From a virus (lineage: Duplodnaviria; Heunggongvirae; Uroviricota; Caudoviricetes): a stretch of DNA of 9,588 nt. The position numbers and the translations under genes were made by a program. The stretch lies in the IMG/VR virus record IMGVR_UViG_2778261639_000016; one strand, given 5' to 3'. Under the pieces are notes generated by a model. It did not search any database and was not told the DNA's origin. It saw only the letters and a list, made by a program, of their open reading frames with translations. This document shows positions 7,447-8,310 of this stretch, piece after piece (the stretch's first letter is position 1; every line of letters starts with the position of its first letter).

Positions 7447-7662
7447 ATGAAATCCATGGATAAGTTAACAACGGGCATTGCCTACGGCACCTCCGCAGGC
7501 AGTGCTGGCTACTGGTTTTTACAGCTGCTCGATAAAGTCACGCCCTCACAGTGGGCAGCAATAGGTGTGCTGGGTAGCTTGGTATTTGGCCTGCTGACGT
7601 ACCTGACAAACCTTTATTTCAAGATTAAAGAAGATAAGCGCAAGGCTGCGAGAGGTGAATAA
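7447..7662 (+). CDS. essD: Class II pinholin (phage 21 S-type)
   Basis: 71 aa; SD GGAGGTGA; two transmembrane segments and a charged C-terminus ([13 protein letters not shown]); near-identical to recalled S21/EssD. Confidence 0.9.
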
Positions 7663-7919
7663 TGCCTCCATCATTACGAAAAGCCGTTGCTGCTGCTATT
7701 GGTGGCGGAGCAATTGCTATAGCATCAGTGTTAATCACTGGCTCAAGTGGTAACGATGGTCTGGAGGGTGTCAGCTACATACCATACAAAGATATTGTTG
7801 GTGTATGGACTGTATGTCACGGGCATACAGGAAAAGACATCATGCTCGGTAAAACGTATAACCGCGATTATCTCCGCTCTGGTTATCTGCATCATCGTCT
7901 GCCTGTCATGGGCTGTTAA
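7662..7919 (+). pseudogene. rrrD: Truncated SAR endolysin (R21/RrrD-like): N-terminal 66 aa retained, then frame runs into Rz DNA
   Basis: Start overlaps the essD stop; SAR-type Gly/Ala-rich N-terminus and lysozyme catalytic spacing E35-x8-D44-x5-T50 are present, but after ...MLGKTY (near 7860) the ORF reads the Rz transmembrane region out of frame and stops at 85 aa. Full T4-lysozyme-fold endolysins of this type are about 165 aa. Confidence 0.7.
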
Positions 7920-8310
7920 TCATTACCGTGATAACGCCATTACCTACAAAGCCCAGCGCGACAAAAATGCCAGAGAACTGAAGCTGGCGAACGCGGCAAT
8001 TACTGACATGCAGATGCGTCAGCGTGATGTTGCTGCGCTCGATGCAAAATACACGAAGGAGTTAGCTGATGCGAAAGCTGAAAATGATGCTCTGCGTGAT
8101 GATGTTGCCGCTGGTCGTCGTCGGTTGCACATCAAAGCAGTCTGTCAGTCAGTGCGTGAAGCCACCACCGCCTCCGGCGTGGATAATGCAGCCTCCCCCC
8201 GACTGGCAGACACCGCTGAACGGGATTATTTCACCCTCAGAGAGAGGCTGATCACTATGCAAAAACAACTGGAAGGAACCCAGAAGTATATTAATGAGCA
8301 GTGCAGATAG
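7861..8310 (+). CDS. rzpD: Rz i-spanin, lacking its native start codon and first ~4 codons (fused to the endolysin remnant)
   Basis: From 7861 this frame encodes [24 protein letters not shown]... through ...YINEQCR, matching recalled RzpD from residue 5 on; transmembrane segment, coiled-coil region and C-terminal Cys intact. The only upstream in-frame ATG (7747) lies inside endolysin-derived DNA. Confidence 0.7.
8069..8251 (+). CDS. rzoD: Rz1 o-spanin lipoprotein, embedded in the +1 frame of Rz
   Basis: 60 aa; lipobox VVGC; proline-rich mature part ([17 protein letters not shown]); entirely nested inside the Rz coding region, the classic Rz/Rz1 arrangement. Confidence 0.9.

Follow-up and report, generated by a model that had tools for sequence, protein, structure and literature searches.

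A single 307-bp deletion, very probably produced by illegitimate recombination in the course of ordinary prophage decay, broke the lysis genes (S-R-Rz/Rz1) of a DLP12-family prophage of E. coli, and no burst would be expected from what is left. The window, i.e. the whole stretch of 9,588 bp that was analyzed, is the complete contig NLVG01000099.1 of the E. coli draft assembly GCA_002510355.1. Judged by its sequence, it is the right-hand part (ybcK to nu1) of a DLP12-family lambdoid prophage with phage 21-type lysis genes. The genes are arranged in the order ybcK (3' end), ybcL, ybcM, ybcN, ninE, ybcO, rusA, ylcG and Q, followed by three cargo genes, essD, the truncated endolysin gene rrrD', the i-spanin remnant rzpD' together with rzoD, bor/iss, cos and nu1. 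At least 80% of the window was present in 86 of the 5,426 complete E. coli genomes. In the complete-genome relatives, the prophage adjoins tRNA-Arg and fimZ, starts with intD, and carries lambda-like terminase, portal and capsid genes 3' of nu1. No RNA genes were detected in the window by Rfam (0 hits) or ARAGORN (0 tRNA). The features of the lysis cassette were as follows.

7447..7662, + strand: essD, S21-type pinholin/antiholin of 71 aa with dual starts M1/M4 (Pfam Phage_holin_2_1, PF04971, positions 1-63 of 64, E=2.2e-35)
7662..7919, + strand: rrrD', truncated and frameshifted SAR endolysin of 85 aa (A1_136 and K-12 alignments, Pfam)
7859..7860, strand not applicable: deletion junction with a 2-bp TA microhomology (alignment to A1_136 and K-12)
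7861..8310, + strand: rzpD', remnant of the i-spanin Rz, codons 5-153 plus stop (identical to A1_136 RzpD 5-153; Pfam Phage_lysis, PF03245, positions 1-126 of 126)
7747..8310, + strand: mechanical 187-aa ORF, consisting of the Rz remnant and 37 upstream codons, which are rrrD codons 29-66 read in the +1 frame
8069..8251, + strand: rzoD, o-spanin Rz1 of 60 aa with lipobox VVGC, lying within Rz (Pfam Rz1, PF06085, E=2.9e-20)

The extent of the deletion was determined with E. coli strain A1_136 (L001) as intact reference and K-12 as second reference. When positions 7440-8320 were searched by megablast against the 5,426 complete E. coli genomes and 50,697 phage records, thousands of matches were obtained, and the best ones were all in two pieces, covering 1,188 bp in the subject versus 881 bp in the query. 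By BLAST, positions 1-7860 of the window were aligned with 1562-9421 of A1_136 and positions 7859-9588 with 9727-11458; exactly 307 bp, either 9422-9728 or 9420-9726 of A1_136, were absent. The alignment to K-12 showed the same break and the same 307-bp loss. A sequence-only reading made earlier had placed a deletion of roughly 300 bp near 7858-7862, and the alignments to A1_136 and K-12 narrowed this to 307 bp at 7859-7860 and revealed the TA microhomology. No longer direct repeats were found at the deletion ends, TA alone being common to both flanks. The flanking strings GTATACC and GTAACC were considered as a longer repeat and rejected: they are similar, yet the product GTATAACC matches neither of them.

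The rrrD gene of intact relatives has a length of 498 bp (165 aa), their RzpD has 153 aa, and the stop codon of rrrD overlaps the start codon of rzpD in the string ATGA. The deletion removed RrrD codons 67-165 with the stop codon, and also the GGGG Shine-Dalgarno sequence of rzpD and the 5' end of its reading frame (codons 1-3 and one base of codon 4, the first). Most of the lysozyme fold and the Rz initiation region had been expected to be missing, and these are the segments that were found to be gone. As 307 leaves a remainder of 1 when divided by 3, the reading of rrrD' enters Rz DNA out of frame and ends at the TAA at 7917-7919. The passage into Rz DNA, put at about 66 codons in the same reading, occurs after exactly 66: codons 1-66 of rrrD' (7662-7859) are native, and the tail of 19 codons (7860-7916) is Rz DNA out of frame, which in its native frame encodes the Rz transmembrane segment.

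The retained part of the endolysin was well conserved. The first 66 residues of rrrD' are identical to A1_136 RrrD and show one change (S28P) compared to K-12 RrrD, and residues 1-27 are without differences from K-12 RrrD (4ZPU chain). The SAR domain was kept at residues 8-27 (7 Ala, 4 Gly, 1 Ser and 1 Thr), and the triad E35-X8-D44-X5-T50 could be read from the translation, in agreement with the SAR domain and E-D-T spacing noticed beforehand. SAR endolysins carry an E-X8-D-X5-T lysozyme triad, are released from the membrane upon pinholin triggering, and even in the absence of a holin leave it spontaneously at a low rate (PMC9239132). The complete lysozyme fold (~125 profile positions in a protein of 165 aa) was missing in rrrD': of the 125 positions of the Pfam profile Phage_lysozyme (PF00959), only 3-37 were covered, compared with 3-125 for the intact relative, and intact RrrD was aligned over residues 1-165, end to end, with the solved RrrD structure 4ZPU and with 3HDE (E=3.6e-110). 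The chains of 3HDE and 3HDF, both matched by intact relatives and labelled just "Lysozyme" in the PDB, are presumably phage 21 R. By these comparisons, rrrD' is a gene remnant and no functional SAR endolysin, and neither folding nor murein binding would be expected of an N-terminal piece of 66 residues without the whole C-terminal lobe. In public records, the 85-aa protein is named "phage lysozome [Escherichia coli]" or "hypothetical protein".

The same junction was searched for elsewhere with a 50-mer that is unable to seed a match in an intact genome; an 81-nt junction query was non-discriminating, its halves being joined into a single place in intact genomes. The 50-mer occurred in seven contigs (L002-L008, the window being L005), which belong to six NCBI E. 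coli assemblies from several different accession series and to one ENA metagenome. It was found in none of the 5,426 complete E. coli genomes, of which 2,568 were matched by a positive-control 50-mer from the retained part of rrrD, and it was not found in the 50,697 phage records, the JGI metagenome contigs or the GTDB species representatives. All deletion-bearing contigs stop at or before nu1. Over their shared length, the seven contigs were 99.87-100% identical to the window and differed by 0-3 SNPs per ~9 kb outside a SNP cluster at 9182-9403; the nearest complete genome differed from the window by ~65 substitutions. The identical junction in seven contigs, their near-identity and the 2-bp overlap argue for a genuine allele with a single origin. 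On the strength of these sequences, the deletion is a genuine, rare clonal allele, which has originated a single time and is inherited vertically within a small clonal group of E. coli. An artefact of assembly or sequencing, or an endolysin natively only 85 aa long, might be thought of for a short draft contig from a repeat-rich prophage region, and both are hardly conceivable here. The artefact is contradicted by the recurrence of the junction in the six NCBI assemblies and the ENA metagenome, and k-mer collapse cannot yield a 2-bp overlap. A full-length native protein of 85 aa was rejected on the 165-aa length of family members with solved structures and on the Pfam match ending at position 37 of 125.

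Differences among the deletion contigs were concentrated in the cos-nu1 region at 9182-9403, where 6-9 SNPs were found in L003 and L007 and 3 in L002, and both L002 and L007 diverge from the window past 9410. This cluster points to recombination, or to a paralogous prophage having been mixed in during assembly. In addition, the contigs L004, L006 and L008 end at window positions 7917, 7945 and 7957, which are 59, 87 and 99 nt past the first Rz-matching base; a k-mer assembly graph would break there if a second, identical Rz copy existed elsewhere in the genome.

The i-spanin gene kept its coding part and lost its initiation region. The transmembrane domain (TMD) and the periplasmic coiled-coil domain of rzpD' are intact, while the upstream Shine-Dalgarno sequence, the start codon and the rest of codons 1-3 are gone, and with them the own start and ribosome-binding site that an Rz gene has in the ATGA/GTGA overlap with the endolysin stop. 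That Rz lacks a start of its own was thus borne out, and the starts remaining in its frame, which is open over 7735-8310, have Shine-Dalgarno energies of -3.4 kcal/mol or weaker, as listed below with those of three native starts.

Wild-type rzpD start: Shine-Dalgarno -5.4 kcal/mol
rrrD start: Shine-Dalgarno -7.1 kcal/mol
nu1 start: Shine-Dalgarno -3.3 kcal/mol
ATG at 7756, upstream in the Rz frame, giving a product of 184 aa: Shine-Dalgarno -3.4 kcal/mol
ATA at 7858, the choice of the public annotation, giving 150 aa: Shine-Dalgarno -3.0 kcal/mol
GTG at 7747, upstream in the Rz frame: Shine-Dalgarno -1.5 kcal/mol

Even behind a good ribosome-binding site, AUA supports initiation at ~0.02-3% of the AUG level (bioRxiv 10.1101/063800). 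Further 3' in the Rz frame, the next ATG is at 8008, and the product from it would be a cytoplasmic fragment without the TMD. A consensus scan for an internal promoter of Rz gave a single promoter-like site; it lay on the minus strand, and this outcome was below shuffle expectation. The 187-aa ORF at 7747-8310 was also considered as a distinct gene and rejected, no credible ribosome-binding site being present at any of the extension starts. In the public gene calls, rzpD' appears as a protein of 150 aa from ATA 7858 (L005, L002 and L007) or, in L003, as one of 100 aa from ATG 8008 (L003 10347-10649), in either case without a pseudogene flag.

The other two members of the cassette were unaffected. 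EssD is identical to its A1_136 counterpart, begins with MKSMDK and is preceded by a strong Shine-Dalgarno sequence (-10.8 kcal/mol); with a length in the range of ~68-71 aa, a dual start and the full profile, it has the properties of an S21 pinholin and is a predicted hole former. The o-spanin gene rzoD has its own Shine-Dalgarno sequence (-8.3 kcal/mol), encodes a protein identical to that of A1_136, and shows the lipobox Cys, the Pro-rich part (PPPPP) and the embedding in the +1 frame of Rz that are proper to Rz1. Downstream of the cassette, the following features were identified.

8342..8635, - strand: bor/iss, intact lipoprotein gene of 97 aa, annotated iss in relatives (Pfam Lambda_Bor, E=3.8e-30)
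9113..9124, + strand: cosN core GGGCGGCGACCT (exact string match), corresponding to lambda cosN
9302..9588, + strand: nu1, small terminase subunit, first 95 codons to the contig end (Pfam Phage_Nu1, positions 1-95 of 164, E=8.3e-60)

The profiles of Rz, Rz1, holin and Bor were matched over their whole length, and that of Nu1 up to the contig end. The sequence-only reading had described holin, Rz1, cos and Nu1 as intact in an otherwise preserved late region. This held for holin, Rz1 and cos, and no second coding indel was found in the window, all other indels relative to intact relatives being intergenic; for Nu1 and for the late region as a whole, normality extends just to residue 95 of nu1, where the contig ends. 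The intergenic indels included a poly-G tract at 8744-8752 between bor and cos, which in the window is 2-3 G shorter than in GF131 and A1_136, and a single-A indel at 9228 compared to intact relatives.

In lysis of the phage 21 type, depolarisation of the inner membrane by the pinholin releases and activates the SAR endolysin, which is tethered to the membrane, and Rz-Rz1 then disrupts the outer membrane. Of these three steps, those of the endolysin and the i-spanin are disrupted in the window. From the known requirements of pinholin, SAR-endolysin and spanin lysis, we infer that the cassette is lysis-defective. Illegitimate recombination between two TA dinucleotides would have removed the 307 bp and left a cassette in which EssD and Rz1 are intact, the endolysin is a SAR-anchored stump of 85 aa and the i-spanin has no start. 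Microhomology-mediated deletion of lytic functions is the usual route of prophage decay. Upon transcription of the late operon, the pinholin would still depolarise the membrane and kill the cell, but with neither a muralytic enzyme nor a spanin complex the cell wall and the outer membrane would stay unbreached; no burst would follow, and progeny, if any, would be trapped in the cell. The deletion would also abolish the spontaneous, holin-independent leak of the SAR endolysin. Knock-out of either spanin gene has been reported to cause an absolute lysis defect (PMC6139136).

Two alternatives concern how much of the lytic function is left. It is unlikely that the endolysin alone was lost and that an N-extended i-spanin, made from ATG 7756 or ATA 7858, keeps the spanin pair. 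Such a product is compatible with the open Rz frame, with the TMD and periplasmic domain identical to those of intact RzpD, with the public gene calls of 150 aa at 7858-8310, and with a Shine-Dalgarno energy at ATG 7756 that is on par with that of nu1. However, the wild-type Shine-Dalgarno sequence and the rrrD/rzpD ATGA overlap are deleted, ATG 7756 sits within an actively translated gene of another frame, and the low activity of AUA starts (bioRxiv 10.1101/063800) weighs against ATA 7858. Even if an i-spanin were made, as is conceivable at a low level from ATG 7756, lysis would still fail without the endolysin. A second alternative, in which lysis is unaffected because endolysin and spanins come in trans from a further lambdoid prophage of the same genome, is quite improbable. 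In the complete-genome search, an E. coli genome had a median of 3 places with a related cassette, and the contig breaks at window positions 7917, 7945 and 7957 in three assemblies hint at a second Rz copy, but the late operon of each prophage is activated in cis by its own Q, so that co-induction would be required.

The other alternatives concern the reason for which the allele is kept. The deletion might be adaptive, the loss of the leaky SAR endolysin and of the spanin leading to less peptidoglycan-fragment release and more vesiculation, to the benefit of the host. This proposal draws on the low-rate escape of SAR endolysins from the membrane without holin (PMC9239132), on the 2.4-fold increase of OMV production after an engineered double deletion of ybcS (rrrD) and rzpD/rzoD in K-12, and on Shigella, which has lost the DLP12 lysis module, a loss for which a host benefit of the same kind was proposed (PMC7918800). 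It is nevertheless doubtful in the present case: the allele is rare (7 contigs; 0/5,426 complete genomes), its clonality, with 0-3 SNPs per ~9 kb outside cos-nu1, and single origin show no recurrence or spread, and rzoD is kept here, unlike in the engineered mutant. That the retained pinholin-only configuration, with holin and Rz1 and without muralytic activity, benefits the clonal lineage is very improbable; possible benefits would be that induced cells die without lysis, or that vesiculation and the release of peptidoglycan fragments are altered, as has been reported for engineered DLP12 delta-RRz mutants and for the missing module of Shigella. In the preferred reading, the finding is ordinary prophage decay of a well-characterised module.

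The cassette was compared with related systems. K-12 DLP12 (essD-rrrD/ybcS-rzpD/rzoD) has the same gene order, with ybcL/ybcM/ybcN/ninE/ybcO/rusA/ylcG/Q upstream and bor and nu1/nohD downstream, and its DNA is 94-97% identical to that of the window; EssD is identical at 70/71 residues, RzoD at 59/60 and Rz residues 5-153 at 145/149. Unlike K-12 DLP12, the window lacks the 307 bp over the 3' two-thirds of rrrD and the rzpD start. Between Q and the holin, K-12 DLP12 carries nmpC::IS5, whereas lipocalin, ybgA-like and AraC-like genes are found in the window. K-12 DLP12 is truncated after nu1, while the closer complete relatives of the window continue into lambda-like head genes. The S21-R21-Rz-Rz1 genes of phage 21 share with the window the PF04971 dual-start pinholin, the SAR N-terminus with the triad, and Rz1 in the +1 frame of Rz; in contrast to phage 21, the endolysin of the window is without residues 67-165 and its i-spanin without the initiation region. 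The engineered K-12 DLP12 delta-RRz strain (Pasqua et al. 2021, PMC7918800) resembles the window in that endolysin and i-spanin function are lost and the holin is retained, but the allele of the window occurs naturally, retains an intact rzoD and encodes a SAR-anchored stump of 85 aa. As in defective or domesticated prophages generally, a short microhomology deletion kills lytic-cycle genes in an otherwise colinear segment; the particular feature of the window is that one event struck two adjacent lysis genes.

These results also bear on annotation and on experimental use. The 85-aa "phage lysozyme" or "hypothetical protein" and the 150-aa ATA-start "Rz" are remnants of one deletion and merit pseudogene flags. 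A natural rrrD-rzpD null allele with pinholin and Rz1 intact is a possible control for studies of the housekeeping roles reported for the DLP12 lysis module, namely in vesicles, biofilm and peptidoglycan release. The 50-mer across the junction specifically marks the clonal group.

Upstream of the cassette, the late antiterminator gene and the cargo region were characterized.

3967..4344, + strand: Q-family late antiterminator of 125 aa, regulator of the late/lysis operon (Pfam Phage_antitermQ on the public gene call; 100% identity to A1_136 Q)
4500-5024, - strand: lipocalin cargo gene between Q and holin
5217-6176: cargo gene for a YbgA-family DUF523+DUF1722 protein between Q and holin
6528-6662 and 6671-7258: AraC-type HTH cargo gene in two frames
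7320-7351, + strand: terminator-like hairpin (ACGCCAGAATAATCGCTGGCGT plus T-run), separating the cargo genes from the holin gene (consensus scan)

The predicted hairpin at 7320-7351 is located ~100 nt 5' of essD, and with a terminator at this place, transcription of essD from upstream would require antitermination or a local promoter. The AraC-type gene is annotated as "frameshifted" at the same spot in intact relatives, and the window is without an indel relative to them. In GF131 (L009 27556-29428), the closest complete relative, another integrase-bearing element cuts the prophage inside the major capsid gene, and ybcK is frameshifted in the GF131 copy of the same prophage. The capsid truncation and the ybcK frameshift of GF131 point to different and independent defects among the members of this prophage family.
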